Below, piece after piece: positions 9,795 through 30,141 of a stretch of 64,000 nt of DNA. The notes under the pieces are model-generated. The model was not told where the DNA came from, did not search any database, and saw only the letters and a list, made by a program, of their open reading frames with translations. The translations under genes were made by a program, and so were the position numbers. The stretch comes from Octopus vulgaris. Its lineage: Eukaryota. Position 1 is the first letter of the stretch, and each line of letters begins with the position of its first letter. Location of the stretch: the NCBI GenBank assembly GCA_951406725.2, contig OX597824.1:98890001-98954000 (forward strand), in the 5' to 3' direction.

Positions 9795-9854
9795 AATGCA
9801 AGCACATAAATGTGAAACAAGGTTCGAAAAATAGCAGAGATAGAGTAATATGTT

Positions 9855-9997
9855 TTATTATTAAAGCTGCAAAAACATCACAAAAATCTGCTACTCAGAG
9901 TTTCACATTCCTGTTCTTAGTCTAAATTGTCCAACAAATAGGAACGTGAAACTCTGAGTAGCAGATTTTTGTGATATTTTTGCAATTTTAATAATAA
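9855..9997. repeat. Long imperfect palindrome with decayed hammerhead-like arms (Penelope-like remnant)
   Basis: ~60-bp arms (..aaaaatctgctactcagagtttcac.. / ..gtgaaactctgagtagcagattttt..). Each arm reads GAAAC-tctga-GTA; the CTGANGA half is degraded. Confidence 0.6.
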
Positions 9998-10594
9998 TAA
10001 TAATAATAATGTGTGTGTGTGTGTGAAGCATTCCATTATCCAAGCTTTTTCTGTTGTTTTTTTTTTAGTTATTCTTTAGTTAATGTTGTTTGTGATACAC
10101 TGAACCTTTCGCCACTTTCTCTGGTTATTCAAATCATTTTTTGTTTTGTTATTTTTACATTTGTTGTTCCTAACACTGTGTACACAAACACACACCCATC
10201 CCATTGTATTTAAGTCCTTTCAGATTGTCACAATATCCTCCAGTTTTTCTCAGCAAACCACTCCCTTGTTATTTTAATGACAGCTTACTCAGGTTATGTC
10301 TAAACAAATATCTTATATCCTCTTTAGCCTTGCTCTCCTCTCTAATCTCTATCTCAAACCATATCCAGCTCTCCCCTAAAATGCTGAAAAATTCCTTAAG
10401 ACATACCACAAAATACCTTGGAACTTTTAGATCTGGCTTTCACATTCTGAATTCAGATCCAGCAGAGCTTGGTCAAAAATTAAAATACCATCCAAATACT
10501 CAGATTAATATATATAATTAACTACACAATATAATTAATATAGTTGATATAATTAACTATACTCCATCTCTAAATTTGGGATCCTGATGAAAAC

Positions 10595-11158
10595 ATTATT
10601 ATTATTATTCATTTGGTAGTTTCAGGCAAATTTCTACTCCATCACCTGCTGCACTTCCGTACTGCTGGAGTGCATACAGTAATGTGTGTTCTTTTTTTGT
10701 TGTTGGGAGTGTACAAACTCTTCCGGTATTGTATCTGTTGTTTTCTTTTTTTTATTTTAGGTGTGGTGTATTCTATTGCTGTGTTACTGTTTGTATTGTG
10801 TTGTGTATGTAATGCGTTGGGTACCTAGCTTGCTGGTGGAAGTTTATTTCAGTGGATAATTGCTGTATAGAGAGTCTCTTGTATTTGTGGATTGTTTTGT
10901 TTAGGTTGTATAACTGGATAGTATCTTGCGTAGGGTGTCGGCTGTTCCTAGCAGGGTTAGTTTTGTGATAGTGTGTAGTGTTGAGGGTCCAGGTTTTGGT
11001 TCATGTTTTTATCATGCCCAATGCACCGACTATTACTGGTATTGTTTTTACCTTCATGCCCCACATCTTGAATACTTCAGTTACAAGGTCTTTGTACTTT
11101 GACAATTTCACCACTTCTTTTTGGACAATCTTTTGGTCAGACGGGACTGCAGGTACTT
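10595..11158 (-). mobile_element. 3' end of an R4/Dong-like RLE non-LTR retrotransposon ending in (TAA)n
   Basis: - strand reads AVPSDQKIVQKEVVKLSKYKDLVTEVFKMWGMKVKTIPVIVGALG...LLGTADTLRKILS (restriction-like endonuclease C-terminus), then a 3' UTR and aataataataat. Confidence 0.85.
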
Positions 11159-11603
11159 TATTTCCTGTAAGCAGGTGTTGTTGTTGTTATTATTATTATT
11201 ATTACTGCTACTACTACTACTGCTTTGTTTTATATGAGCTGTTCCAAATTCCTTCCCTAGACAGCCGGTCATTTTAATACGGGTGTTATTTATAATTAAC
11301 AATGATAGATTATATGGGAAGGAGATCAGAATTGGAGAACGAAAATTGCTAAACTTCAGTTTTGAAAGGGTTTCAAGAGAATCAGGTGTTTTCAAGTTGA
11401 CAATGTACATCGGTACTACATTGGTACTACAGACTAAAAGGGAGGGGAACATCAGTCCAGTGAAGCTGATGGTCTATAGGTACGACACTAAGGTTAGGTT
11501 ATGTTAGCAGTGGCTAATATCAACAATTTCATTACGAAAGACAGAGGAATAAATAGAGTACTGTGCTTTTAATCAAGCCCACTATCCAACCTGACAGTGT
11601 CAA

Positions 11604-11691
11604 ACACCTGTAAATATACACTGTTTACACCTGTAAATATACACTCTTTACACCTGTAAATATACACTCTTTACACCTGTAAATAAACACT
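11604..11691 (+). repeat. 23-bp minisatellite, 4 copies, each containing CACCTG
   Basis: Unit acacctgtaaatatacact(g/c)ttt. Confidence 0.9.
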
Positions 11692-12558
11692 ATAATACAG
11701 GAAATTCAACATTTTAAATTTAAAATCAAACTCCAGATTTTGTCTGCTGCTTCTGAAATCTGTTGAAGTCCGTAGTACCGAGGTATGAGTGTCTTGTTAT
11801 CATTATGGCACCTCAATTGCTGGCCTTGTGTCTAAACAAAATTAGAACTATCATCATCATCATTGTCATGACAAACATTGTCAACTCACCAACCTTAGCT
11901 GCAGCTCTGAGAATTTTCACTGAATATGACCCCGCATCCCCTCTTGACAGGAGTTTGAAAATGGATAGGGTGGGGGGCGACCGGTAATTTTTTGATTTTG
12001 AATTAGTGGTAACAAGTTTTTGATTTCAATTAAAAATAATGCCGAATAAAAGCATAATAATAATGTTCACAAGACAAAAAGAGGAGGAGGAGAGACAGTG
12101 TTTGTCTCTTGGCAGCTGCTGTTGAAGATATGAATACACTTGAAGATGAAATTTATATGATCATCAGTAATGACTAGAAAATCATTAATGAATATCAGAA
12201 TTAATATGAAGAAATTAAATACAACAACAACAACACAAGCAACCCCAGCATGACCACCACCACCACCACCACTTACATTCCCAACAAAGTTGAGTGCATT
12301 TGTGAATATCACACAACAACAGTTGAATATGACCTTGATGGTGAGTTCTTTCCTTGAGAAGAATAAATTTTCTATCCATTCCAGGAGGAGGGAAAGATTA
12401 GAAGTGGACAATCTCATCCCAGTAGGATAGGGAAAATGCTTGAGAGATGTCTGCAGTCTAAGGAAAAGAAGCCAGTTGACCCTCAGCCTCAGTGAAGGCA
12501 GCAGAGGTTGAGGCAACAGCCACAAATACATACTCTTTGGATGAATATTTATTTATAT

Positions 12559-12855
12559 CAGGGGTTCTCAAACATTTTTCACCTTTGAAACCCCTTTCAT
12601 TACTATTTTACTCTGATGGGCCCCTACTGCCATTCAATGTCTAAAACCTAGTTTTTTAGAAATTTCCTTCAAAATTCCTATTTTGTTTTTCTCACATTAA
12701 CTTTTCGTAGGTTGAACTGAGTAAAATGTTGGAGGAAGAAACCCAACTGTTTCTTGCAATACACACCAATACATACATCTAAAGCAAACTTTTTTCAGGG
12801 GCCCTTAAAATACCCTTGTGGATCTCCAGTTTACTATTTTGTTGCATGGACCCTG
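12559..12855. mobile_element. hAT MITE fragment (left end only)
   Basis: Begins CAGGGGTTCTCAAAC with internal gggcccc/ggacccc motifs like the other hAT MITEs. The right TIR is not seen. Confidence 0.55.
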
Positions 12856-13592
12856 ATTTAGATCAACGTATCTGGGGAGATGTAGATACGAATGAATGTA
12901 ATCTTTCAAACATACTAAGAGAGTTGACTACTAAATAAGTCACCAAGATATTGGACTGGTTTGGCAAAATAATTTCCCCAAGATCAAGCTCCCTTCCTCA
13001 GAAGAACTAATCAGGGGTCAAAATGGAGTTGGAGATGCTGCTGACACATGAAAGGTTTCAGAGGATCTTCAATCTAATCTATATTGAAATTTTAAAAATA
13101 CCAGGAGAACCAGGTGTTGCTTATGTGGGAGCACCAATCATCAAAAAGCTTTCTACCTTCTGGCAAAGGGGCTAAAATCCCCTTTCCATAACAGCAACTA
13201 TTGCCAAGGCAGCAAAGAGGTTTACTGCCATCACCCTCAAAAGACAAAGTCTCATAACGGTGCTCTTCTCCTCAAACTGACAACTTCCTGACACATGTGA
13301 CAAAAACCTACATGAATCACTCTTCATCTCCCTCTGATTATCCAGGTCGGAACATGGCAAATAGTCATCAGAAGGATCAACAAAAGGAAAATACCATAGC
13401 CCTGTTACCACAACCTTCCTTCTCCCTAGAAAAGTGAACAGAATACCAGCCAAATTGTCAGAAATTGGCACAAACTTTAGAAGGGACAACAAAACCAGTC
13501 CAACTCTCAAGCAACAAACCCCATCCACTTCATCATTATAAATATAAACACACACACACACACACTTTAATACACACATACTTTAAATATAT

Positions 13593-14008
13593 ATATATTT
13601 ACATTATTTACATTTGAGGGATATTTGTCCTCATCTTGTTTATTGTTAACACAATGTTTCGGCTGATATACCCTCCAGCCTTCATCAGGTGTCTTGGGAA
13701 AATTTCGAACCTGGGTTCTCATTCCTAAGGTATTTTTCGATATTATTATTATGACCATGGGCATATGGTGTAGTTGTTAAGAGCATGGGCTACTAACCCC
13801 AAGATTCCGAGTTCGATTCCAGGCAGTGACCTGAATAATAATAATAATAATAAATAATAATGTCGAAAAATACCTTAGGAATGAGAACCCAGGTTTGATA
13901 TTTCCCCAAGACACCTAATGAAGGCTGGAGGGTATATCAGCCGAAACATTGTGTTAACAGTAAGCAAGATGAGGACAAATATCCCTCAAATGCAAATAAT
14001 GTACATAA
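13593..14008. mobile_element. Composite repeat: inverted Penelope-like hammerhead-bearing arms flanking a tRNA-like head
   Basis: Arms ~13593-13750 and ~13835-14008 are reverse complements. Each carries acac-CT(G/A)ATGA-aggctg...cagcc-GAAAC-att-gtgt (13649-13692 on -, 13911-13954 on +). The centre (13759-13832) has A-box-like TGGTGTAGTTGTTAAG and B-box GAGTTCGATTCC. Confidence 0.75.
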
Positions 14009-14094
14009 TTCCTCATCTCTTAAATATAGACTGCTCTGCTTCTTAGAATGTGCTTCTCCAAATTTGTTTTTCTAAAAAAAAATATATATATATA

Positions 14095-14255
14095 GGCGCA
14101 GGAGTGGCTGTGTGGTAAGTAGCTTGCTAACCAACCACATGGTTCCGGGTTCGGTCCCACTGCGTGGCATCTTGGGCAAGTGTCTTCTGCTGTAGCCCCG
14201 GGCCAACCAATGCCTTGTGAGTGGATTTGGTAGACGGAAACTGAAAGAAGCCTGT

Positions 14256-14296
<41 letters not shown>

Positions 14297-14503
14297 GTGT
14301 TTGTGTGTCTGTGTTTGTCCCCTTAGCATTGCTTGACAACCGATGCTGGTGTGTTTACGTCCCCGTCACTTAGCGGTTCGGCAAAAGAGACCGATGGAAT
14401 AAGTACTGGGCTTACAAAAGAATAAGTCCCAGGGTCGATTTGCTCGACTAAAGGCGGTGCTCCAGCATGGCCGCAGTCAAATGACTGAAACAAGTAAAAG
14501 AGT
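14095..14503 (+). mobile_element. Full-length tRNA-derived SINE
   Basis: A-box-like tggctgtgtggtaag, B-box-like ggttcggtccc, central microsatellite and aagtaaaagagt tail. Confidence 0.93.
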
Positions 14504-14524
14504 ATATATATATATATATACATA

Positions 14525-14738
14525 CACACACACTTGCCTATACTAGCATTTATGCAAGGCTGTTATATGTGTGTGCACGCGCGTGTGTATGTATATGTGT
14601 GTGTGTGTGTTATATATATATATATCATCATAGCATCATCATCTAAACGATGATGATGAGATATATATATATATATATAACACACACACATATAACAGCC
14701 TTGCATAAATGCTAGTATAGACAAGTGTGTGTGTATAT
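14525..14738. repeat. Fold-back inverted duplication (~215 bp)
   Basis: cacacttgcctatactagcatttatgcaaggctgttatatgtgtgtg is mirrored with one mismatch. Centre: catcatcatc-taaac-gatgatgatg. Confidence 0.9.
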
Positions 14739-15494
14739 ATATAGATACATATATGTATCACACACACAATAATCTATATATGCACACACACACGTGTGTG
14801 TATGTTTATGTTTTTCAATTGCAAGAGATCAAATGATTTGTCCCACCCAGTTTAACCCTATTAATAATTCCATCATCATAATCATCCAGTCGTTACACCA
14901 GAGGGAGCCAGACAAATCGAATGCGTGGCTATAGAAATATATGTTCCATAAACCAAGCAAATTGTGGATTTAACTGCTTTAATCTGTTTCATCACAATAA
15001 TCCCCGCTAATCTCCACCTTTTTCGTTTCTTTGTGGTATTTCTGCCTCTTGGTTGACCATTTCTAATACTTTGATTACTGCAGAATTAAATAGGAGTATG
15101 GGTGATAGTATTGGTGGTAGGTCAATGAGTGGTGGTGTACCCTAGTGACTTGTTCAGAGACCATCTTCAAATGTTGGAACCTGAAATATTTTCAGGGGTG
15201 TGTGTGTGTAACTTTTGAGATGCAACATTGATAAAGTAGCAGAGATGTGGTGGTGTTCATGTCTTTTTTTTTATTAAACATTAATGATGTTAACCTTGAT
15301 CCAATAGGCCTAAGATCAAAAATGTTCCACACATGACCATCCAGTCTTTTAAGAGGATTTACATTGTACATTGTGGCCTTCATTATTTAAACGACTCCAG
15401 TATGGTTTGGGATAGCATTTGACTGCTGTTTCTAGCAGGACAATGACCTTATAGCAGCTACATTGTTAGTAAGATGAAGTGGAATTAACTTCGT

Positions 15495-15780
15495 CTGGGA
15501 TGGAAAACCAACCAGCTTTATGAGTGAATCTGATAGATAGAAACTGAAAGAAGCCTGTCATATACATGTGTGTGTTTGCCCCCCCACCCAATATTACTTG
15601 ACAATCAGTGTTGGTGTGTTTATGTCCTTGTTACTTGGCAGTTCGGCAAAAGGAGATTGATAGAATAAGCACCAGACTTCGGAAAAAAGAAAAGCGAAGT
15701 ACTAAGGTTGATTTGTTTGCCAATTCTTCAAGGTAGTGCTGCCCCAGCATGGCCGCAGTCTAATGACTGAAAGTAGTAAA
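15495..15780 (+). mobile_element. SINE 3' portion (diverged)
   Basis: gaaactgaaagaagcc...cagcatggccgcagtctaatgactgaaag. Confidence 0.8.
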
Positions 15781-17176
15781 TGTGTGTGTGAGTCAGAAGA
15801 GCTTCCTCTCCAGATCCCATCCTGCTGATGTTTGTTGCTTTTTATAATTAATAAGTTAATTAATCTGATTAACATTTTGTTTACTACAAACACATTGTTT
15901 ACCACTTCCTCAGCATTAATTATTATTTCTGTTGTTGAAAATAATTAGCTGTGGCTCAGCCTTGATTGACTGCACCCCCCCAATCCCCGTTGCCTTCCCC
16001 AACCTTTTTAGGGTTCTGTGCAACTACCTTCTCGTGTAACCTATATTTAAGGTTGTAAGATAGGAGTTAAGAGGGATTTGGGTGTTATTTCTAGCAAGCT
16101 AAGCAACCACATACAGGCACTCATGGCTTATTTGATGTTGCTATGGTAACTCCATTTGGTTGTTTGACTGCTTATACATAAATTATCTCTGCGTTGCTCC
16201 AGCTGGTCTTTACTCTGACAGATTGGACATGTTGGAGTGTCCAGTGTATAGGTATTGGTCTCAGCTCTGAAAGTGACCACAGCCTTGGCTGTTCTGGCAG
16301 TGTTCACCCCCCCCCCCACCACCACCACCACAGCACTGACTGTTCTTAGAGAGCAGGGGTGATGGAAGCTGACGGCATATTTCCCCATCTGCTCCCTTGG
16401 CTGCCCCCCCCCCCCAGTTACCATTATCAACTGCCTCCGTGATTCCCTGTGCCATGTCACTTGTGAAACAAAAGGAAATCACTGGACCAAACCATACTCG
16501 ATCCCTCTCCTACCCACCCATCCGTTATTTGCTCCCCCCCCCGCTTCCTTTATCTTCTGAATCTGATACTTAAGTGAGGAAAGATGTTGTAACTATTGGT
16601 TGTTAATCCATCCCTGTTTTCCCTCCTCAGCTGCCCATCATCACTCTCTCTCTGCTCACTCTTTCATTGATAGCCTTCACCTTGGCTTTATAATACCCAC
16701 ATTCTTCTTTATTTTCTAACATTATTCCCACCCCCACAACCCCCACCACCACCAATCCCTCTCTCCCCAAGTCCCTCATTACTGACATCCATTACACTCT
16801 CTTCTTGCTCACCATTCCTATAACTATCTGATATTCTCTTTTTCCTTTACCTGCAACCATGTTGCTACCATTAGTGCCTCTCTTCCATTACTCTCTCTCT
16901 CCCTTATCATATTCTGTCTTTCATTCTTCTCATTACACCTCTAAGTGCTGTCTCTTCCATCCCTCCTGCTTTTACACCATCATTGTTTGAAGAATTAGGA
17001 GAAATATTACCTTATTTGGAAACAGGTGAAGCTTGGTAGCAGGAGAAGCCTCTGGCCATAAAAAATCTGCCTCAATAAGTTTTGTCTAATCTGTGGATTT
17101 AAGTCAGACAAAACTTAGTGAGAAAATCGAAATGGAAGCAAAGATGGTATTGATGGATGGGTGTGTGTGTGTATTG

Positions 17177-17211
<35 letters not shown>

Positions 17212-17884
17212 CGTGAGCATACACTTGTGATTGTGTGAGTGTTGATTTTGTGTGTCTTCATTAATATTGTTTGAGCAAAAATATTGATGTTTACATTCTG
17301 CAGCGAACAAAAGCTCCCACGTTCTGCCAGTTTTAATGCATCGGGGCCAGTAGAATGTGAAAACATTTTGTTTGAGAAACAAAGGATGGAGAAGGAAGAA
17401 CTTCATTCTGAAGAAAATCTGCCTCCGCAGATCCTGTCTGAGGCCAGCAGAGAGCTTTCTTTGGCTGCTGCATTATTATTATTACATTTGTAAAGACTGT
17501 ATTTTAAGCCAGCATTTTTTAAACTGTGGGTCGCAAGATAGATAAAATTAGTTGTGACAAAAATGTTTGAAAATCTCTGTTTTAACAGGGCTGTGGAGTT
17601 GGAAACAAATAAGGGGTAGCTTGAGTTGGGGTCTGTACCAACTCCCACTTCAAAATATTCTTTAATATGAACCAGTTCTAACCTCTGGGCCGACTCAAAG
17701 TACAAGTGTATGCATATGCTTTATGAGATATGTAGACCACAATCACTTGATTACATAAAGAGGAGTCGGAGGTGCCAACGGTAAAGTTGGGGTCAGAATC
17801 GAAATTTTCTTGTTTCAACTTCCCAGCCCTGGTTTTAACCAACTGGATAAAGAAAGCAATTCTAAAAATTGTGGACCTGCTTAC

Positions 17885-18187
17885 AAAATCAAAATTCAAC
17901 ACCCATGACTTTCAGAAACATTTTTTCACATTCAGAATTACTGAAGCATGGAATAAACTATCCACATCAATTGTTAGCTGTCGGGACACTACATCCTTCA
18001 AAACTTCCATCCTTCCTGAAATTTGCTAACAGTGCACCCGATGGCCCCCATCCCCGTTTTTGTTTTTTAACCACACATTCACTGTTCACTTTCTGTGCAT
18101 TATTCCATGCCCTGCACTTTTGGCTACCTTTTCTAATGAGCTGAACTGCACCTGAGCATGGTATACAATAACTTCATTATTATTATA
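17885..18187 (+). mobile_element. CR1/L2-group LINE 3' fragment
   Basis: HDFQKHFFTFRITEAWNKLSTSIVSCRDTTSFK* followed by a 3' UTR and (TTA)n. Same family as 54014-54345. Confidence 0.8.
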
Positions 18188-18986
18188 TAATTCTGGAAAC
18201 AAAACTTTGAAGAAAATAAAACAAGAATTTGGTAAAATATGACCAGAATTCAAGGTTTGAAATTGTTTGTCATTGTAGGACGTCTGTTACTGTGTCTCTC
18301 CCTCTTTGAACATATTTCAGTGTCGGCTGTCTGTTTGTCTTTTGAAATGTAAAAATGTTGGGGCCATGCTCCCCATAGAAAATCCAGCTCCAAATAAGCC
18401 TCGTGATAGCAAAGGAGAATGGGCACCAGCCAGCCAACCCAAAGGTTGGGGTGGGATGCATCTGCTTACCTCAGTTGCTATGGCAGTGAGGCAGATCTGG
18501 CCACCCCCGTTCACGGGAACAAAACCCAGATTTAAAATACTGAATGATGATGATGATGTAAAACATCTGCAGCAGATTGAAGCTGCTTTTAATGAGTTTG
18601 TGGCATTTGGGTTTGATGCGAGGAGACTTCAACATGGGATAGTACACTAGTCTATTGAAGAGGACTTCCCCCCACATATCTATAGGTGAGGAGGAGGGGA
18701 TAGTCTCATGGAGATTTGAGTGAAGTGTTTGAGGAAGACGAGGGAAGAGATGAGGTGGGTGGAGTGTTGGAAGTTACTATTTCAGGGTAGCTGGGTCCTT
18801 ATTACAATGGTAATGGAAACTGCCAAGAAATGGAACTGGGTCTGGAAGTTAATATTTGTATAAGGGTTGCAATGTGAACCTTTGTTAATCAGTCATGGCT
18901 GATCTTTCTTTTGTCTACATTTTAGAATATTTGATGCATGTGTGTGTTTCATGATGCAAACAGGAAAAATAGAACTCAAAATAAGA

Positions 18987-19049
<63 letters not shown>

Positions 19050-19734
19050 CGTATATATTTTATTAATATTTAGTAGAAGCAACAAAGTAACTGAAGGGCC
19101 AAAGGTTTTGTGTGTTAGCACCTATCAAACTAGTTAGATTGATGGGTTGTAAATTTATACGCCGGTGATAATAGTATTTCTCTTGATAGTTCTGGTGCTG
19201 AAGAGGAGATAACCACTCTGAAATGCATGCATCCAACAGTCTGGTTAGAGAGCACTCATTTGGTGTGTTTACACCTTTCTGTCTACAGTGAGAAATTTCC
19301 TCCATCACAAAATACAGTGAATGGCTATCTTATGAGTTTGAATATACCTCAAGCATATTTAAACTGGCAACAAGCCTCTGTGTGTGTGTGTAATTTTGTG
19401 CATACAATATGACATAAATATATAATGTTGATGTCAACTTATAAACTTCAAGACAGCCTGAAATAATTTCTTTTTGGAACAGTGGATCTTGAAACACATA
19501 CACACATGCATGCATACATACATACATATGCACAGACATACACATGGGTTTCTTTCGGTTTCTATCTACCAAATCCACTTACAAAACTTTGGTTGGCCTA
19601 GGGCTATAAGTGGAAGACACTTTCCCAAAGTGTCATGCTGTGGGACTGAACTGAAGCCTACATGTGTATCTATTATACATGTGAAGGCGACTGAGTGACA
19701 TGCGCCTCCACTCTTGCCACTCAGACAGCCAAGG

Positions 19735-20660
19735 AATTTCATCAGCATGAAGATTTGTCTTTGTATATTTCGGGATCCAGCTGCATTTTGTCACACAGAT
19801 AGCTTTCTATAATTTCAGAGCAGTCTGTCACCCTCCCACTTAGCAAATATTTAAGTTGTTCATTGTAAATTGCCAACACCCATTAGTTTTATGTCCAGCA
19901 AATCCTTTATTAAATGTTTGCAGGTTTGTTTCACTTATTACTCTTGCAGCCAATGAAATAAAGCTTCATTGATTGGCTCCACATTTGTAGCAGCCGAACC
20001 ATCAAAGCGAAAACAGTTCAATTTCATGTGAAACTATTATATTGTAAGGCATCCTAGGACCTGTGTGTCTCATGGTTTTGGTAGAGGTGTCTTTATGCTT
20101 CCGAATGACATCTCTTTTGCAATGGGAGTTTCTTCTCATGATGACAGTAACTATTTGACATTCAGCAGCTCAGAAACAACCTGCGTGTTCTCTAGATGGC
20201 TCCTTATATTCATCAGTGGCAAAATTGAAACTCCAAACTGGCTGCAAACTCCAAGATATACCTGAAACTCCTGACATGGCTGTTCTATACATGGACCATC
20301 TCTTGAAGTTTAAGAAACGAGCCACGTTTTGTGCCTGGTCAGATGGCTTTTCTATTAAGAACTTGTCTCCTTCAGTGCAGCTGCAGAAATCAGGGGCCTT
20401 CATTGTACAAGGGCAGAAGTGAACCAACGTCTTGGGAGATTTGTCCTTCTACTCCAAAAGCTGGCATGATTTCCCCTTAACTGATTATTATGTTGGCTCT
20501 AAAGAAGTCGTTTGTAAAACAGTTATATTTTCTGACATTCTTCAAATAATACATGGATTTCTTAGCCGAGGCATTAAGAAGCTGCTTTGGAGACTCTGAG
20601 GGATCAACAAGAATGGATAGATTAACTTTACCATTGGAACAATACACTACATCTCTCTCT
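19735..20660 (-). mobile_element. Helitron RepHel N-terminal fragment (decayed)
   Basis: Frameshifted segments CSNGKVNL..PKQLL..YLKNVRKYN, MPAFGVEGQISQDVGSLLP..FLQLH, KLQEMVH, KRDVI and ETHRS*DALQY, typical of the Helitron N-terminal region. Confidence 0.75.
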
Positions 20661-21207
20661 TTCTCTCTCTCATATGTCTTAGTCAAACCTTTATCACAAA
20701 TATTGGTCATGGTACTAATTGAAACTATTTTTCAGAAGTGTAGTCATGTCCAGGATCATGGCTGAAGGTACCTCTGTTCTTTGGTTCATGTGTGTATTGA
20801 CAGGGTCTAGTCTCTGCTTGTCATGCCTGGCCTGATACTGTTGTGGGGTTTCATGGCATCTATGTGCTGTCTGTCAGTCTGTCTGTCGAAAGTAAGCCTG
20901 TTGTTCATCAGGTGTCTCCAGTTGTCTATAGACAGCTGGTCTGGTTGCATTGTTTATGGTGAATGTCCCTATTGAGGGAATTCTCTTTGACTTGCCTGTT
21001 GCTTGGTAACATCACTGGTGCTGGTGCCATAAAAAAATAAATAAAAAACATCCAATACATTCTTACACTCTAAAGTGGTTGGCATTTGGAAGGGCATGCA
21101 GGTGTAGAAACCAAAGCAAGCATTGGAGCTAAACCAAATCCTCTAGTTTGTCAGGTTCTGTTGATTCATTCAACCCTTGCCAACATGGAAGCCATTTGAT
21201 GATGATG

Positions 21208-21276
<69 letters not shown>

Positions 21277-21524
21277 CACATAATCCACTTTTTCATGGTT
21301 GTGTGGGTTAGACACAATTCGTTGAGGTAAATTTTCTATGTTTGGATACCTTTTCTGTCAGCAAGCCTCATGCATTTTCAGGTAAGGTAATATACTTCTT
21401 GGTTTCACATATTTCTACAAACAACTGGAAACAAATGACACTGCTTGTATGACAGTGATGCTTGTTTACAACTGTCATGTGATGTCAAGAGTGGGGAGAG
21501 GGGACACACACACACACACACACA

Positions 21525-21681
21525 CAGAGGCTTCTTTCAGTTTCTGTCTACCAAACCCACTCTCCACGTTTTGGTTGGCCTGGGGTTATAGAATACAATT
21601 GCTCAATATGCCATGCAGTGGGACTAAACCTGGAACCATGTGGTCAGGAAAGAAACTTCTTAATTGCACAACCATGCCTGT
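21525..21681 (-). mobile_element. SINE 5' half (a further partial copy lies at ~19545-19655)
   Basis: ggcttctttcagtttc...ggaaccatgtggtc, reverse strand. Confidence 0.8.
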
Positions 21682-21809
21682 GTATATATGTGTGTGTGTG
21701 TGTGTATACACACACATACACATATATTTGAAGCTCCAATACATCTATTGGGTGACACCCAAGCATTCAACTATGAATGTATTGCATCTTACAGCAGAAA
21801 CAGCTGTAA

Positions 21810-21988
21810 TCTAACAAAGTTCCTGACGTAATTCCTCACCTTGCTTTCTTCTTTGCCATTCTTTCTTCTTATTGTTCCAAGTGAAATACCTGGGTACTTC
21901 AACATGTAATGTCTTTGCAAAGTCATCATTGATGCACAATGAAAAGAATTCTGTCAATGTTCTCATGTGTCGTTCATTGACAGCCATG

Positions 21989-22029
<41 letters not shown>

Positions 22030-22230
22030 TCATTATTTCTGAGCAACATTCTTTGTTCATATGGTAGATGAACTTGCAGTCTCACTATTGCAGGTTCTCT
22101 TTCATGAATTGGAAATCCTAAAATGGATGCAACTGGACGGTCCAATATACCTGCCCATTAGATATTGACTATTGTTTATTTGAAAAGCTGCTTTGACACT
22201 CCCTTTCTGTATATACTTGATGATGTACTT
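21810..22230 (-). mobile_element. Helitron Rep (HUH motif 3 and downstream) fragment interrupted by (TA)n
   Basis: KYIIKYIQKGS, YLMGRYIG, ILGFPIHEREPAIVRLQVHLPYEQ and TLTEFFSLC..DDFAKTL..EVPRYFTWN..KKEWQRRKQG. Confidence 0.88.
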
Positions 22231-22370
22231 AACTGACCTCAGTTAAGTGCAGTAGCATTTGAATGCTCTTAAAGGAGTTTAATGTAAGGTACAACCCATT
22301 TGTTTGTTTTTCCATTTTTGTGAGATTCAACTCCTCCCTTGGCAGCTGATCTTCATCGATAAAGAAATGG

Positions 22371-22404
<34 letters not shown>

Positions 22405-22850
22405 TGGTGCTACTTTTAGCATGCATTCTACCACAGTGTCTATAGTCTATGCTGTGAAATGACCTGATTTAAGTTAGGAATAGAGTTCGGATAAGGCTAC
22501 ATGGTGAAGTGTAAATGGCCAAGAGGACTGCACACTAAAGTGGTGCACACATCAAGACTGTTTCTTTATGTAGAGCACTGGTTCCCAAACTGTGGTCCAT
22601 GGACCCTTGGTGGTTCACAAGGGTAGTACTGCAGTAGGGTTTGTGAACTAAATTCAAATTATATATATATATAATATATATAAATCGTGAAGTATATTTG
22701 CTACTTAAATGTGGCTAACCCCTAAGGGTGGATGCTACTGTACCTTGTAGCCCCAGGAGGATACCTCCTCCAGCTGGCTATTGACACACTTTCTGTACCC
22801 TATCAGTATTTGCAAAGGGAAGCCATCCCTCCCGTCTTCAACCTATGATA

Positions 22851-22895
22851 CACACAGACTCGAGTTTCTGGGTATTGACCCTTCATAAGCGTGTG
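22851..22895 (-). ncRNA. Minimal hammerhead motif with one core substitution
   Basis: - strand: cacacg-CTTATGA-agggt-caat-accca-GAAAC-tcga-GTC-tgtgtg. Palindromic stem III ACTCGAGT and GUC triplet. Confidence 0.72.
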
Positions 22896-23144
22896 ACAAT
22901 CACTGGCTGTCGATGAAAAGTAGGCCTCCCTTTGCAAATATATATCCTTTTTCCAGTGACGAAGTAATGTGTAAACAAGGTGTAAACGAGGTAATGGGCT
23001 GAGTAAGTGATATGGATAGACAATTGTTAAGCTCCAGGTTCGGTGATTATGCGAGTGAGGAGTTCAACGTAATATATAAATTTTTTTGTTTAGAATGAGA
23101 TAAAAAAGCCAAGGCTGTGAAGATTTTAGAACATTTATAAATAG

Positions 23145-23192
23145 GTCTTACAGCTGTTTCCAAGATATTTATTATATCCCTTCATCAGAGAC
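23145..23192 (-). ncRNA. Minimal type I hammerhead motif in the left arm of a Penelope-like inverted repeat
   Basis: - strand: gtct-CTGATGA-agggatat-aataa-atatcttg-GAAAC-agct-GTA-agac. Confidence 0.8.
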
Positions 23193-23561
23193 GGTGTGAG
23201 GAAATGGTTTTTCCTGTTTTTTCTTTTCTTCTCTTTTTTTTCCTTTTTTTCTTCTCTTTTCTTTATTCCTCTCTTCCTGTTTTCGATTTGACCTTACAAA
23301 TACATTCCCAATTTTAGGTCCCTTTAAATAAGACCCTTGATTCAATAGCACTCTGTACAAACTCTATACTTGGAATGACCAACTTTAGATACTATTGGAT
23401 TTTACTCACAAGATATTGGAATCTTATATGTATACCATTCTGCCTAAATAATGGGTCTACAAATGCAATATCCCAGCATATCTCACCTCTATTTTCATTC
23501 CTTCACTTCACTCTCTATTTCATATCTTATCTAGAGTAACTATTAACCATTTTCTCACACC

Positions 23562-23609
23562 GTCTCCGATGAAGGGATATAATAAATATCCCGGAAACAG
23601 CTCTAAGAC
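23562..23609 (+). ncRNA. Mutated hammerhead motif in the right arm of the same inverted repeat
   Basis: gtct-CCGATGA-agggatat-aataa-atatcccg-GAAAC-agct-CTA-agac. The core carries U>C and the cleavage triplet G>C. Confidence 0.7.
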
Positions 23610-24004
23610 CTTCTCTTTATAAATGTTCTGAAATCTTTCACAGCCTTGGTTTTTTTATCTCATTCTGAAAGAATATTATATATATACAAACACACACACA
23701 AGGATAAGCATATTAAAAAGGGGCCGTGGGAAAACTCATTTAAATAAAAGGGGCCCTAGTAGAGAAAAAGTTGGGAAGCACTGATGTAGAGAAAAGGTTG
23801 CTTTGACCCTGTTGAAAAGAAGACAGGGGGAAGATAATGGTTAACATTTTTAGTGTTTGTCTTAAACATAATAACTACATAAATTACCAAGTACAGTTGC
23901 TTAGCACCGTTCCACTGGACAATCTGACACAAGAAAAGTATTGGATATGTGTACCTTACAGGTGTATTGTATTGGAAGAGAGAGAGAGAGAGACTTGTTG
24001 TGGT

Positions 24005-24117
24005 GGGACATGACGTATCAATATAAAGTTTTGTGAAACGTGTATGGCGACTGCTTTCTGGTGACCTAATATCTTACAAACTTGTTCGGTGGAAATAACG
24101 ATGAGGGAAACGTAAGT
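24005..24117 (+). promoter_or_regulatory. Candidate proximal promoter and non-coding exon of the dispanin gene
   Basis: CRE-like TGACGT at 24011, TATAAA at 24022-24027, donor GTAAGT at 24112, and an acceptor at 24305 (194-nt intron). Confidence 0.55.
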
Positions 24118-24463
24118 AAACATTGAACTAGGTTAACACTACTGACTTCATATCAGTTGCCCACCGTGGCCACAACTATTACATTCACTTCCTTTTAAAG
24201 ATCTTAGTCATAAAACCTGACTGTTTGCCGTGGAGGGTGGGGTAGTAGTCGTGTGGTTGTGTTTAAGATTAGCAATCAGCTCTTTTCTTCTCTCGTTTAT
24301 TGTAGTTATGTGCCAGGTGTGTATTGACATCATTGTGTAACAAATATATCCAACTGTTCAACAGACTGGCACACATGCTTTTGTTTCACACGTCTTCGAA
24401 TATCTGATATCTTACTATCCTCGTTCTCTCTTCACACGAACTATTACAAACTTAAAGGACAAG

Positions 24464-24543
24464 ATGTCCAATACAGACAACATTGAGGACCAGGGTTCAG
24501 ATGAAAAACCGAAATCTTTAAACAAAAGTTATTCGTTGATAAG
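24464..24543 (+). CDS. CD225/dispanin-family gene, coding exon 1 (MSNTDNIEDQGSDEKPKSLNKSYSLI-R)
   Basis: ATG at 24464 (aagATGt), open to the donor AG|GTAACT at 24544. Its phase-2 end joins in frame to the acceptor at 29946-29947 (AG+A=Arg, then MTTEN). A polypyrimidine/TAG acceptor at 24281-24305 suggests the exon starts at 24306. Confidence 0.75.
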
Positions 24544-25784
24544 GTAACTACTGTCACATTTACTCCCCACCAGCTTTTAATTACCTTTTGAATACCATCG
24601 TCTCTTCTCTCCACCTAAAATATTTCTCGGTTACTTGATAATCTCAATCACATTTCTCCCAATCTCACCTGGCGGTAACATATTATGGTCAATGAAAGCC
24701 TCACATTTCATTACAGGGCATTCCTGTAGAAAAGCGTCAGAAATTATTTCATTGATCGCCAAACCTTAATTTTTCTGCTTTTTTTTTGTTTTTGTTTTTT
24801 TTCTGGACGTTTATATTTTAAGCATCTTAAATTAGGATTCTGAGTTGGAGGGGGCCCCGCTTCTGTTTTTGCAATTTCGAAAAATGTTTTCAGATTTAAA
24901 ACCCATGATCAGAGGTGTTCCAGACATGACCATCCCATTTGATATTGTGTATCTAGGCTTATTCCAAAGTATACTTTGACAATAGGCTATACTTGGATGG
25001 TTATTCGAGTGTTATTTCTAGCAGTTTATAAAGAACAAATTTTGATCGCTTTAATTCAAGTGTCTAGAAAATATTACAAGGAAACTCATTTAACAAAACT
25101 TTGTATGAATATGTCGTTAGAAGAAGAAAACAGGAAAAGTATTTTGTAAACAGTGGTTTCTGGCATAAGTAAAGAATATGTACACCACCTATTTTCGGCG
25201 TAACAAAAACTCTAACCCTGATACTAACCCAAAACCTAAACACCGGGTGTGCGTATTCTTTATTTTCGCTGTAGTTACCGTAGTATGTGTTGCTATGGGT
25301 GTTTTAAATGAAAGATTCTGTTAACAGTGGCCATTCCCCTATTTTATTTCATCAGTCTACGATGTATCAAGTACGGATACAATGTGGTTACCCAGAGGTC
25401 ACTGTTTCTGGGAAGTGGCTTACTGCATGGTCCCATGTGTCAAGGACTTCACCCAATCACACAGTTCCCTTTCGACCTCAAGTTCCTTACATGGGAAGCA
25501 TGACTTTCCAGACTTTGTTGTCGTATTGTTTGTTGTAAAAGGGGCTCTAATAACGGTTCAAGTTTCAGGGACCCAAAATTGTAGGTCGACCACTGATGTA
25601 GTGAAGGTAAAAAGGCTGAAAGATAACCAAGGGTTGTCGAGGTAGGCAAGAGGAGGTAACCTGAGAGATAGTGTGCTGGGCAAGTTTAATGAATGAGATG
25701 GGGACAGTCTACGAGTGCTGAAGAGCCTGGAATCACAGAGGTGGAGAGATGATCGAGAGGATATATTGTGAGGGGGAAGGACCG

Positions 25785-26250
25785 TCGTTCGTCGTCGTCG
25801 TTTAACGTCCGCTCTCCATACTGGCATGGGTTGGACGGTTTAACTGAGGACTGGCGAGCCAGAAGGCTGCACCAGGCTCTAATCTGTTCTGGCAGAGTTT
25901 CTACAGCTGGATGCCCTTCCTAACACCAACCACTCCGAGAGTGTAGTGGGTGCTTTTACGTGCCACCAGCAAGAGGGCCAGTCAGGCGGTTCTGGCAATG
26001 ACCATGCTCAAAAGGTATTTTTTTCCATGCTACCTGCACAGGAACCAGTCCGGAGGCACTGGCAACGACCACCCTCGAATGTTGCTTTTTACATGCCACT
26101 GGCACAGGGAGTCAGTCCGGCGGCACTGGCAACGACCACCCTCGAATGTTGCTTTTTACATGCCACTGGCACAGGGAGTCAGTCCGGCGGCACTGGCAAC
26201 GACCACCCTCGAATGTTGCTTTTCACGTGTCACTGGCACATGTGCCAGTA
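25785..26250 (-). mobile_element. RTE 3'-UTR-derived element with three 67-bp tandem units
   Basis: Reverse complement of the RTE 3' end. Units start at 26055, 26122 and 26189. Confidence 0.85.
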
Positions 26251-26629
26251 AAAAGAAGTATATTAGTAATCGAAAATTAGATGAATAAATAGAAAAACTG
26301 AAGTAAAAAATGTGGTGTTTTGGAAAATAAGGTGGGAAAATAAGGTGGGCTTGGCAGGGAACGCGCGCGCGTGTGTGCATGCTTATAATATAGGCACATA
26401 TATCACAACTTGTTAAAGCCAACCGTTGCCTTTAAAGTGTGTTTTGTGAGGGGTGAAGAGAGAACTTCAATTGTAAAGTGTATTGTTAGTGAGTTTGGTC
26501 TTTTGTTATTTCCATAAAATGGAAATAACAAGTCTTCTTTGGTCTCTCTCTTCACAGATTCCATTAAGTTGGAGTGCTCGGAAATTCTTTGTAGAAAATT
26601 CTTAATTTTGGGGTCATATGAAAAGTAGG

Positions 26630-27135
26630 TATTTTGAATGATATTTTGCCGCGTGAAAACATTGGAAGTGTTTCATCAAAGATGTCTTCGATGTATCCTG
26701 AACTTCGGCTGAGAAGACAGAACAACAACCATCAGCATCTTGAAAGCAGTGAAAACAACAAGCATTGAAGCTCACCTCATCGTCAACTGAGATGGAGTGG
26801 ACATGTTGTTTGAATGCCTGATGACCATTTACCAAAGCTGAAAGGAGGAGGACAGAAGAAGGGATCTGTTGAGGGGCCAGTCTGAAAATCGACTTCAACA
26901 ACTGGGAAGAAAATGCAAATTGACCAAAACCTCTGGAGACCCATCGTCCATGAAGGAACAACTATATTCGAGACAAAGAGATGTGAAGAACTGGAAGAAA
27001 AGCGAAGGAGGAGGAATGAGATGCAGCTCCAATCCAGAGTAGACCTCCTCCAATGAACAACTTGTCCAACTTTCAGAAGATCCTTCAAAGCCCGACTTGG
27101 ACTGTTCAGCCACCTTCGAGTGCACCGACAACCCA
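26630..27135 (+). mobile_element. RTE (BovB-like lineage) LINE 3' fragment
   Basis: LEVFHQRCLRCILN, QLRWSGHVV*MPDDHLPK, LWRPIVHEG and a terminal CPTFRRSFKARLGLFSHLRVH zinc-finger-like motif. Confidence 0.85.
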
Positions 27136-27435
27136 ACATGGACAAGAATGAAGACCATCACCCTCTGAAGAAAGAGGGAGAGCCACAATGGCGATTTTGA
27201 ATGAAACATAAGACAGAAGTAAGGTTCAAGGGAAAATTTTAAAAGTGCATGCACAAAACGCACGCATGCATAGACGCGCATCTGTGTCAATGTGTGCGTC
27301 AACCAAGGGACATAACTCCTAAACTAATCCCCTGGCCCCTTTTTTGTTCCTCCATGTTTTTCACAGCAGCTACTGACTGGTTGTGCTAATCCACCTCCGA
27401 CACTAGAGAGCAGTTGCAATATTCCCTTCCATATC

Positions 27436-27527
27436 GGCTGACTCTGATGAGCATAAAGTTATACAACTTGTTTGTTATCTAACACTCCATTGTATTCTTT
27501 ATGCGAAACCAATTGGTAAGACCAGCC
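27436..27527 (+). ncRNA. Type I hammerhead ribozyme motif with intact core (Penelope-like minimal type, extended stem II)
   Basis: ggctgact-CTGATGA-gcataaag...ctttatgc-GAAAC-caattg-GTA-agaccagcc. Perfect 8-bp stem II, palindromic stem III ACCAATTGGT, GUA cleavage triplet, and a stem I with an internal loop. Confidence 0.85.
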
Positions 27528-27632
27528 ATGATAGATATTTAATACATTTCAGATAATATACCCATTCTACTGACAAATATACAAGTGCATCTTTTCCCTG
27601 ATTTATGGTCTCTTAGACGACTTACATCTATC

Positions 27633-27664
<32 letters not shown>

Positions 27665-27666
<2 letters not shown>

Positions 27667-29371
27667 TTTTTGTTGTTGAAGGTCTCCCCTTGTGGGTGAA
27701 CCACATTTCTTTCCTGTTTAAAATTACTGTTTGTTCTCACAATTATTTTTTGAACTGTCTTTTTTCTTCCCATTTATGGGAGAAGCAACAAGCAGTGCTG
27801 TACAAGCTGAACCAGCCAAGAGCCACAGTTATGCGGCTGCAACTGGAAAAGGTGTTGAAGTACGAGAAGTGAAAATCGAGCCGGAAAGGTTGAAGGAATG
27901 CAGCAACCTTTTAGAAAAAGAAGGCCACAACCTGAAATTGACCCCTCCACTCGATGTAATATATAGTGTCAAGAGAAAGAGCATAATTTATAAAACTCTG
28001 AAAGTATTGTCAAAGAAAACTGAAATAGAACCAATTGAAGAAATTGAGAAGCATTTACAAGTAATTAAAAGAAAGATGACATTTGTAACAAGAGGAAGAA
28101 AATATGGCACAGTGGAGGTGCGATTCGATAGTGATGTCGAAGCGGTATTGCATTCCACTGATGCCACAAAATTGGAAGAGTGGGTTTTCCTACCAACTTA
28201 CTGTGGCAGAGGAGTTGTCCGAGTGAGGGTAGGAAAAATAGCACTGGAATTAGAGGAGACATGGCTGGTTGCAGCGATATTACACAATATGGAAGATGAT
28301 GCCAGGATACAAAGAGTGACAAGAAGAAGAAAGGTGGACTGGTGGGGTCATGGGGTCGAGATGCCACTTCAGACAACAGATAGGGATATGATCAAAATCC
28401 CAGAAGAAATAATCCTACCAGAAGGTGTGAGGTTGCGAGTAGTGGTGGAGGGCAGGCCTCGCAGATATTGTGTGGCGAGAAAGGCGACATGAAGGCAAGG
28501 TGCCTCCAGAGAGAAGAAAAAGAACAAGAAATAGAAGAGTCGGAGGAGTAGGAGGTACAGGAGGAGGAAGAAGAGGCAGAGGAAGGATTCGAAGTGGTTA
28601 AAAAAAGAAAAAGAAAAGGCTCTCCGCTGGAGAAGAAAAAAGAAACAAAGGAGATAGAGAGAGAGGTGGAAAAGGAGGTTGAGAAAGAAGTTATGGAGGA
28701 GGAACAGATGGAAACAGGCAGACTGGAGGGTTGTGTAAGCCATGAGGTGGAGCAGCAGCAAGAGGAAGAAGGGACAGCAACAGAAATGGGTCGAGTGATG
28801 CCAAGAGCAGAACTCGGTGAGCGAGAGCGGAGAAAGCAGAATTGGTATTTTGTAAAATATGACAAAAATGTGTTGAGGGCAAAGATGGTTGCGAAGATGA
28901 AATCGGTGATAGGGGTGAAGCTGCGAAAGGACAGTTACGCTAAGAATGTGAAGGGGATTCTAATAGACAAAGAAAGATGGAGCAGGCAGAAAGAAAAATG
29001 CAGATTTGAAGCACCAACTTTCCAGGTAGAGTTCGACGATCTACCATCAGTGGTCAAACGAAATGAATTAAGGTCATTATATAAAAGGAATTCAAAAAAA
29101 GAGAGAGTAACTTGTGTTCATGAAAGAAAAAAACCAAAAAAATAAAACAGATGCAAAGAGACTAAAAACATGGATTATAAAAAGGGAGAGTAAGAACGTT
29201 TAAATGGTACTACATGTGAGTGGGCACATGTAGCCATTTCATCTCCATCAATTTCATTGTATGTATTACCATTTTACATTCGTTTTATGTTTTTGTCCCC
29301 ACTGTGCTGGCCTGTCTGTCTTTGTTCTGTGTCCCCTCTGTGTTAGGCCCTTGTGGCTGTAATAAAAATCT
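27665..29371 (+). mobile_element. ORF1-only (HAL1-like) L1/Tx1-related retroelement inserted in a (TA)n tract
   Basis: ORF from ATG 27776 with SYAAA, an RRM-like region, VVEGRPRR and a frameshifted zinc knuckle (CGEKG[D]MKARC), then an acidic/basic tail to 29145. AATAAA at 29361. (TA)n on both sides and no ORF2. Confidence 0.7.
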
Positions 29372-29413
<42 letters not shown>

Positions 29414-29947
29414 TCTCCAAACAAAAAGGAATTCATGAGGAATTAGTAACCCAAGCAAAATACTTAATCAGCTCCCTGCAGATAAAAATCTACCAGACTA
29501 ACTAAAAACTCTTGTTCTCCTGGGAATCCGAAATCAAAGTGCAGTCACATGTGTAAATCCATGGTTCCACTACCATTTAAGATGCTTTTTATAATGATAC
29601 ATAAAATAGACATAAAATTGGGTTATGTACATTTATTTATTATAGGCTTACAGCTGTTTCAGAGCCATTGCTGGCTCTTACCAGTATTGATCGAGGAAAG
29701 AAATCTGATACCCTAGAAGCTCTTTCTGATCAGTGGCCGGCTGTTGGCGATTACTACTATATTACTGTAATCAGACATGCTAGACATATTTTAAACGGAC
29801 AGGGTATGAATTGAGGGAGATGTCATTGCTATTTCTCGTTGGCCCAATGGCCACATAGGGGTTCCCTCAATTCATTAATATTGCTGTTTCATTATCTCAT
29901 TAACACACTTGCATTAATCATCTGACTGTTTCTCCTTCTACTTTCAG

Positions 29948-30141
29948 AATGACGACTGAAAACTCTGATTTGTACAGGACTAATTCCAAGATGATATTGG
30001 TCACCCGTGATCCAGTTTATACCAACAAAACCATTGTACAGGGCCATTATATTGGACCAAAACCTCACAACTATTTACCTTTGGCTATTTTTGTGACTAT
30101 TATCAACCCCTTACTCGGTCCAATTAGTATAATGCTTTCAG
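29948..30141 (+). CDS. CD225/dispanin-family gene, coding exon 2 (..PKPHNYLPLAIFVTIINPLLGPISIMLS)
   Basis: Acceptor ttctccttctactttcag|, donor G|GTGAAT. Encodes the P-x-x-Y-L motif and first hydrophobic segment typical of CD225 domains. Phase-1 end. Confidence 0.9.

Follow-up and report, generated by a model that had tools for sequence, protein, structure and literature searches.

Hammerhead sites in the window

The window analyzed here is a 64,000-nucleotide (nt) stretch of the Octopus vulgaris genome (assembly GCA_951406725.2, contig OX597824.1, positions 98,890,001 to 98,954,000 of the forward strand), in which the original prediction had placed hammerhead-like ribozyme motifs at six sites and had read them as a diverse set of non-autonomous retroelements. 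All six sites lie at the positions claimed, and each matches a repeat family whose majority sequence holds a type I hammerhead with a palindromic stem III; the families are called B (9.9 kb), A (13.6 kb), C (22.85 kb), D (23.15/23.56 kb), E (27.44 kb) and F (29.65 kb). The sites are separate, mostly decayed insertions, and their origin from the ends of Penelope-like elements (PLEs) is very probable. Overall, we favor as the probable reading that they comprise decayed PLE ends together with one family, A, that uses a captured tRNA-type RNA polymerase III (Pol III) promoter, perhaps for its whole protein-coding unit. Hammerhead-bearing PLE ends are known biology, and the description as non-autonomous is mostly wrong: it holds for family C only, whereas A, D and E represent the termini of protein-coding elements that occur elsewhere in the genome. 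The unusual part is family A, a tRNA-headed, protein-coding PLE.

Both the link to PLEs and the common minimal type I design had been recognized correctly, as had the difference in stems. The core boxes, three stems and NUH site of a type I hammerhead are present, and the stem sequences differ among the families and pair within each: A has GACAC/GTGTT, GGCTG/CAGCC and ACGT; C has CACACG/CGTGTG, GGGT/ACCC and ACTCGAGT; D has GTCT/AGAC, a 7-bp stem II and ACAGCTGT; E has an 8-bp stem II with a long loop and ACCAATTGGT as stem III; B has the core CCGACGA and ACTCTGAGT as stem III; and F has a loop II of about 85 nt, in which the copies L142 and L145 show an inner hairpin. The three inverted pairs were also confirmed (13596-13750/13853-14007, 23143-23209/23545-23611 and 9855-9915/9937-9997).

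Membership in a hammerhead family thus holds at all six sites, but just two of the nine arms in the window are intact, and the core is lost at 29.65 kb. A structural descriptor found these two motifs (27444 on the plus strand and 23188 on the minus strand), while 50 shuffled versions gave 0.04 on average, and the remaining seven arms, read from the sequence, are damaged in the core or in stem III (Table 1). The hairpin beside 29.65 kb belongs to the upstream sequence of family F and is not a stem II. Rfam gave no hammerhead over the window, its matches being low-scoring and mostly microsatellites, and the folds of single strands are weak for most arms (z 0.3 to -2.7), as expected because the motifs are minimal. 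Cleavage by the hammerheads is predicted to require a dimer or the help of a protein. Among copies collected for each family, the descriptor was passed by 13 of 30 for A, 2 of 20 for B, 10 of 25 for C, 11 of 25 for D, 1 of 25 for E and 1 of 20 for F. First-look counts, which are lower bounds in this 2.8-Gb genome, gave at least 2325 candidates for A, 1134 for B, 2579 for C, 4735 for D, 1634 for E and 94 for F.

The stretch is locally dense in these insertions, with six in 20 kb versus six same-family events in 400 kb of random genome and one in the 200 kb adjoining the window, for families that were selected for occurring in the window; the random 400 kb holds 13 events when ten families are counted. 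Intact motifs occur at background density (2 in the 64-kb window versus 11 in 400 kb of random genome).

Family A, a PLE with a tRNA-derived head

The unusual feature of the stretch, missed by the original prediction, is a tRNA-derived head that lies between the two A arms. The full A unit is 2.6 kb long and runs in the order head, (AAT)n, ATG, hammerhead, remainder of an open reading frame (ORF) for reverse transcriptase (RT) and GIY-YIG endonuclease, stop codon, about 28 nt, and head again. The ATG stands 20 nt past the (AAT)n spacer, the hammerhead core lies at +35 and cleavage is predicted at about +70, and the short A unit includes the first ~50 codons of the ORF. This order was pieced together from three sets of 30 loci: in every locus selected by the ORF the stop is followed by the head; in 27 of those selected by the head, the hammerhead tail comes after it; and in 7 of those chosen by the 5' part of the ORF, the repeat passes without interruption into the ORF start. 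Only two of these seven (L347 and L356) reach far enough, and in both the repeat begins at the head.

The column majority of 75 fragments gives a 763-aa open frame with RT and GIY-YIG domains, and Pfam RVT_1 was matched on a real A copy. A single ORF is present, with the RT followed by a C-terminal GIY-YIG domain; translations of real loci show an endonuclease with the CCHH motif, VYSIPCSCG..YKGE, EH, ADH and a DKG motif of the ADKG type, and no CX2-5CxxC linker. Homologues include proteins of a lizard, a lancelet and insects among the 120 listed of 891. The copies also have the layout of Penelope insertions, with a partial tandem repeat, an inverted 5' copy and a tail at one end. By its motifs, its layout and the homologue list, family A is classed as a Penelope/Poseidon PLE. 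Its 3' ends fall into two main types (78 short, 66 long and 9 other), and in 47 of 53 head-to-head pairs the tail is on one arm only, so that one short and one long 3' end are joined.

An exact 24-mer over the A core occurs 5472 times, and its reversed control does not occur. Copies of family A are concentrated close to the start of C1 (G000:C1:170000-1700000), with 21 exact matches in 1.7 Mb versus a mean of ~2 per Mb. A metagenome scan for relatives gave a single, uninformative 12-residue match.

The head aligns end to end with true tRNAs of the genome in 48-49 of 75-77 letters (z 7-8, 200 shuffles), with Cys and Arg tRNAs as the best matches. Its majority sequence keeps TGGCGTAGTGG and GTTCGATTC 45 nt apart, which we take to match the A and B box consensus, and its acceptor and T stems pair poorly. 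Matches from a relaxed ARAGORN setting were discarded, as the same setting gave 61 spurious calls in four unrelated loci.

In a comparison of 27 ORF-linked with 62 short A arms, the same majority letter was found in 224 of 224 columns (smallest Fisher P 0.002, uncorrected); thus the short copies are not a separate short interspersed nuclear element (SINE). A distinct, Penelope-dependent SINE was therefore rejected: the short copies share the ORF-linked majority, their unit holds the ORF start, and the repeat continues into the ORF.

Start sites and transcription of family A

The 5' ends of A copies were mapped in 90 loci, which are the first 99 of the 5472 24-mer matches in the order listed, with pairs merged. 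The copy is tail only in 27 loci, starts inside the head in 5, starts between -20 and +12 of the first G of the head in 39, and is longer in 19 (one to -29 and 18 beyond -100). Accordingly, 39 of 58 head-reaching insertions stop at -20 to +12, which is 15 times the upstream rate (binomial P 4e-31). At the level of single bases, among 40 loci that lack a long arm, 39 begin at -7 to +8 (the count being capped at +8), none at -8 to -25 and one at -26. Such a pattern would be expected from an RNA whose 5' end lies near -6/-7, about 13 nt ahead of the A box, and a Pol III start at the head is likely. RNase P cutting at the head was rejected, since as much as 7 nt upstream of it is retained in the copies and the acceptor stem is unpaired.

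Pol III terminates at runs of four or more T. On the sense strand of the A majority there is no TTTT, either in the 2323 nt of the ORF or in the repeat, and single copies have 0.21 of the expected number (7 versus 32.8, in 69 pieces). For eight of nine other retroelement groups from the flanks, labeled by motif inspection, the observed/expected ratio is 0.86-1.45, and a young PLE used as a control has 9 TTTT runs in a 2325-nt frame of the same T content as A. The Phe content of A is no different from that of close homologues. The absence of TTTT suggests Pol III transcription; as a property of one family it is not decisive.

That the whole A unit is made by Pol III is a more tentative proposal, put at slightly under an even chance. 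On this proposal, family A would be an autonomous protein-coding retrotransposon transcribed end to end by Pol III, with a coding strand purged of terminators and with thousands of short copies marking the RNA start base by base, a description that we hold possible and a little short of probable. Its RNA would begin about 6-7 nt before the head. The A protein would initiate reverse transcription within the RNA, using two positions ~130 and ~155 nt into the ORF, as in the Poseidon of the anole, in which the ORF begins at the hammerhead and reverse transcription from two internal sites defines the tail (PMC11167929). Priming in the 5' repeat would give many short copies that extend to the RNA 5' end, priming in the downstream repeat would give longer, randomly truncated copies bearing the ORF, and the second arm of head-to-head pairs would arise by fold-back or template switching.

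A number of points weigh against the Pol III reading. Its terminator argument is a single observation on a single family, with P values of 0.036 when codons are shuffled, 0.002 when synonymous codons are drawn freely and 0.12 for a Markov model; GGGG runs are likewise absent from the A majority, an RTE-like group is also low in TTTT (0.32 on 3.1 expected), and the comparison set is without a head-less Poseidon relative at the DNA level. The head itself was not called a tRNA by default ARAGORN or by Rfam, and no intact full-length A copy was recovered. The start-site sample covers the first 57 Mb of one contig and required the exact 24-mer, and a short (12-bp) palindrome across the start could favor fold-back at that place. 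In about 6% of two 2026 RNA runs, which are unstranded and were compared with L347, A reads are equal on both strands, 91% of them continue into unrelated flanks, their depth tracks copy number, and no pile-up of read ends occurs at the head or at the cut site. These reads fit passive transcription of inserted copies and speak neither for nor against the Pol III model. Finally, the translation of an uncapped Pol III RNA is left unexplained, as is the local density of six families in 20 kb.

Three other explanations were weighed. The head might drive short Pol III RNAs only, as a SINE riding on the protein of the element, with the ORF transcribed by Pol II or by read-through from host genes. 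The modest TTTT signal would suit this explanation, as would the two thirds of head-reaching copies that are SINE-sized and start at the head, and SINE-like repeats joining a Pol III promoter to a hammerhead are known in schistosomes (PMC6765202). We nevertheless regard it as unlikely: there is no separate short subfamily, the short unit carries the first ~50 codons of the ORF, and the upstream repeat of full-length copies begins at the same place. Moreover, anole Poseidon needs ORF sequence past the start of reverse transcription (PMC11167929), which solo short copies do not have.

Improbable to a similar degree is that the head is a passenger, with the 5' end set by a Pol II internal promoter or by a fold-back hot spot at the 12-bp palindrome, and with the absence of TTTT following from an A-rich strand. 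A LINE-like internal promoter (LINE, long interspersed nuclear element) does lie in the repeat of Drosophila Penelope (PMC2377424), perfect fold-backs occur at the palindrome, and the Markov null gives the P of 0.12 mentioned above. Fold-back-like structures, however, account for only about 5 of the 40 short loci, and the others join different sequence at the same place; the A and B boxes have been kept at consensus and at tRNA spacing despite the decay of the acceptor and T stems; and the 9 TTTT runs were found in a control PLE of equal T content.

The view of the original prediction, that all six sites are non-autonomous retrozymes producing circular RNAs, is very improbable. In its favor, family C fits it, no ORF could be tied to B or F in 20 loci each, and retrozymes do derive from PLE ends (10.64898/2026.07.22.740005). 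It is refuted for A, D and E, which lead on into ORFs for RT or GIY-YIG; among the 25 C loci not one has two hammerheads, most copies in the window are mutated, and nothing in the analysis, whose RNA reads covered family A, pointed to circular RNA.

Families B to F and relation to known elements

As had been predicted, no Penelope ORF lies in the window (tblastn, seven baits). The proposal to link each family to such an ORF succeeded in part: A, D and E are linked to RT or GIY-YIG ORFs, but B, F and C have no collinear ORF, 20 loci each having been inspected for B and F. For D and E, the upstream GIY-YIG ORF was reached in 2 of 25 loci each. These ORFs (L050, L054, L062 and L070) have a CxCX5C linker, no CCHH, CxxC and CxH around E and N, and a (TA)n target, and the recovered copies stop short of the N-terminal part with the RWK and DKT motifs. 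The linker, the lack of CCHH and the CxxC/CxH motifs place D and E in the Hydra clade as defined in PMC8557442, and by these motifs they are classed as truncated elements of two different Hydra-clade families. The label Neptune was rejected for both in favor of Hydra. At the level of the clade, they resemble Hydra-clade PLEs, including the catalogued Hydra-1_Obim of Octopus bimaculoides, in the CxCX5C linker, the lack of CCHH, the (TA)n ends and the hammerheads, which are reported as canonical in this clade (PMC8557442).

Family C is a 355-nt unit without an ORF, having stops in all three forward frames, and appears by sequence to be a retrozyme-like non-autonomous element. Its 3' ends fall at unit positions 42-49 (17 of 25 loci) or 81-101 (8 of 25), often followed by (TA)n. 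The expectation of tandem copies was borne out to the extent that 5 of 25 loci exceed one unit, a full unit being followed by the beginning of another; a pair of successive units that each have a complete hammerhead, the criterion for an active retrozyme (10.64898/2026.07.22.740005), was found in 0 of 25. A PLE protein probably copies the unit, using a tandem or circular template. A nearby ORF in L096 was rejected as belonging to C, as no C follows that ORF within 6 kb. Like non-LTR (long terminal repeat) retrozymes (PMC7229834), C is a short head-to-tail non-coding unit, but it was not seen as a tandem of two hammerheads.

Table 1. Coordinates of hammerhead-family features in the window
Feature	Position	Strand
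Family B, inverted arm; hammerhead truncated within stem II; long 3' end continuing into (TA)n	9795..9916	-
Family B, forward arm; decayed hammerhead 9924-9967, core CCAACAA (9931-9937) versus family CCGACGA; stem III ACTCTGAGT	9915..10000	+
Family A (Penelope/Poseidon terminal repeat), inverted arm; short 3' end; CTGATGA intact (13688-13682); stem III ACAT for ACGT	13596..13750	-
Family A, tRNA-derived head; A box (family TGGCGTAGTGG, +7) and B box (GTTCGATTC, +52); putative Pol III promoter; copy starts -7 to +8	13759..13832	+
Family A, (AAT)n spacer of variable length	13833..13861	+
Family A, first ~150 nt of ORF (ATG 13881); hammerhead core mutated to CTAATGA (13915-13921); stem III ACAT for ACGT; long 3' end and tail	13862..14030	+
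Family C, part of 355-nt retrozyme-like unit; hammerhead 22896-22850, core CTTATGA, stem III ACTCGAGT; 3' end in (TA)n	22681..22990	-
Family D (Hydra clade), inverted arm; intact hammerhead, core 23188-23182, stem III ACAGCTGT	23090..23210	-
Family D, truncated 3' untranslated region and hammerhead; core CCGATGA (23566-23572), stem III broken; 5' boundary approximate	23210..23670	+
Family E (Hydra clade), truncated 3' end; intact hammerhead 27433-27530, 8-bp stem II, long loop, stem III ACCAATTGGT; (TA)n end; 5' boundary approximate	27300..27625	+
Family F, remnant; internal deletion of CUGANGA box and ~85-nt stem II region of the family; GAAACAGCTGTA and 3' strand of stem I left (29660-29645); boundaries approximate	29586..29770	-

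Other sequences were noted around these insertions. A 72-nt inverted pair without hammerhead boxes lies at 14504-14575/14683-14754. On the minus strand, 10590-11180 holds the 3' end of a LINE, which carries a restriction-like endonuclease motif (TIPVIVGALGMIK) and resembles a frame in L177. On the plus strand, a broken purine-rich reading frame (27740-29100) adjoins family E, and an exon-like frame between AG and GT (29949-30141) has a weak CD225/dispanin match (E 0.0096, below the cut-off); the insertion cluster may lie in or before a CD225/dispanin-like gene. Outside the window, a further hammerhead family, with the core CCGACGA or CTGACGA and stem III ACGT and flanked by TA or TG repeats, accounts for more events in the random sample than any other (6 of 13; L413:8482-8600, L420, L423, L128, L034 and others), and no ORF link was seen for it. 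A motif with the core TTGAAAA (a U3-A8 variant) and stem III AATT, possibly another family, passes the descriptor in three copies (L367:833, L415:6377 and L421:2224). A young PLE family (L457, G000:C1:27841500-27851000, and L427-L456) has intact frames of 775 aa; its near-identical matches number at least 150, and its units are arranged head to tail at a spacing of 4271 bp. Judging from these sequences it is probably still active, and it has no end in common with families A-F.

Minimal hammerheads of PLE repeats have been described both as single dispersed motifs and as opposite-strand pairs 100-700 bp apart that come from truncated PLEs (PMC4209133), and retrozymes as PLE derivatives (10.64898/2026.07.22.740005; PMC7229834). 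The retrozyme preprint sampled vertebrates, insects and a coral (10.64898/2026.07.22.740005), the accessible text of the paper on non-LTR retrozymes mentions neither octopus nor cephalopods (PMC7229834), and PLEs are reported to be abundant and partly young in an octopus (PMC13282606).

Family A is closest in design to Poseidon_Ac of the green anole, with which it shares one RT and GIY-YIG ORF that begins inside the terminal repeat, a hammerhead in the first codons, two 3' ends that give the tail, and tandem and inverted insertions (PMC11167929). Unlike in Poseidon_Ac, the A repeat starts with a tRNA-derived head and the unit is without TTTT; the promoter of Poseidon_Ac is placed loosely in the repeat, and the accessible text mentions no tRNA-type promoter (PMC11167929). 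In Penelope of Drosophila virilis, too, the promoter is in the repeat and an upstream copy drives the downstream ORF, but that promoter is LINE-like (Inr/DPE) and is accompanied by an intron (PMC2377424), whereas A has A and B boxes and no evident intron. The schistosome SINE-like repeats resemble A in joining a Pol III promoter to a hammerhead; they are non-coding, whereas the A unit is the start of a protein-coding element (PMC6765202). In the literature found, no PLE with a tRNA-type promoter is described, Repbase and Dfam lying outside the search.

Should family A prove to be a Pol III unit, it would be an example of a retrotransposon with a promoter of the SINE type driving a 2.3-kb ORF. 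This would raise the questions of how an uncapped RNA is translated and what role a hammerhead plays 70 nt into the ORF. The family offers a simple test system for them, with one promoter of known boxes, a mapped start and a mechanism known from anole Poseidon. The short A copies, for their part, are likely to be annotated as SINEs, although they are the ends of an autonomous element.

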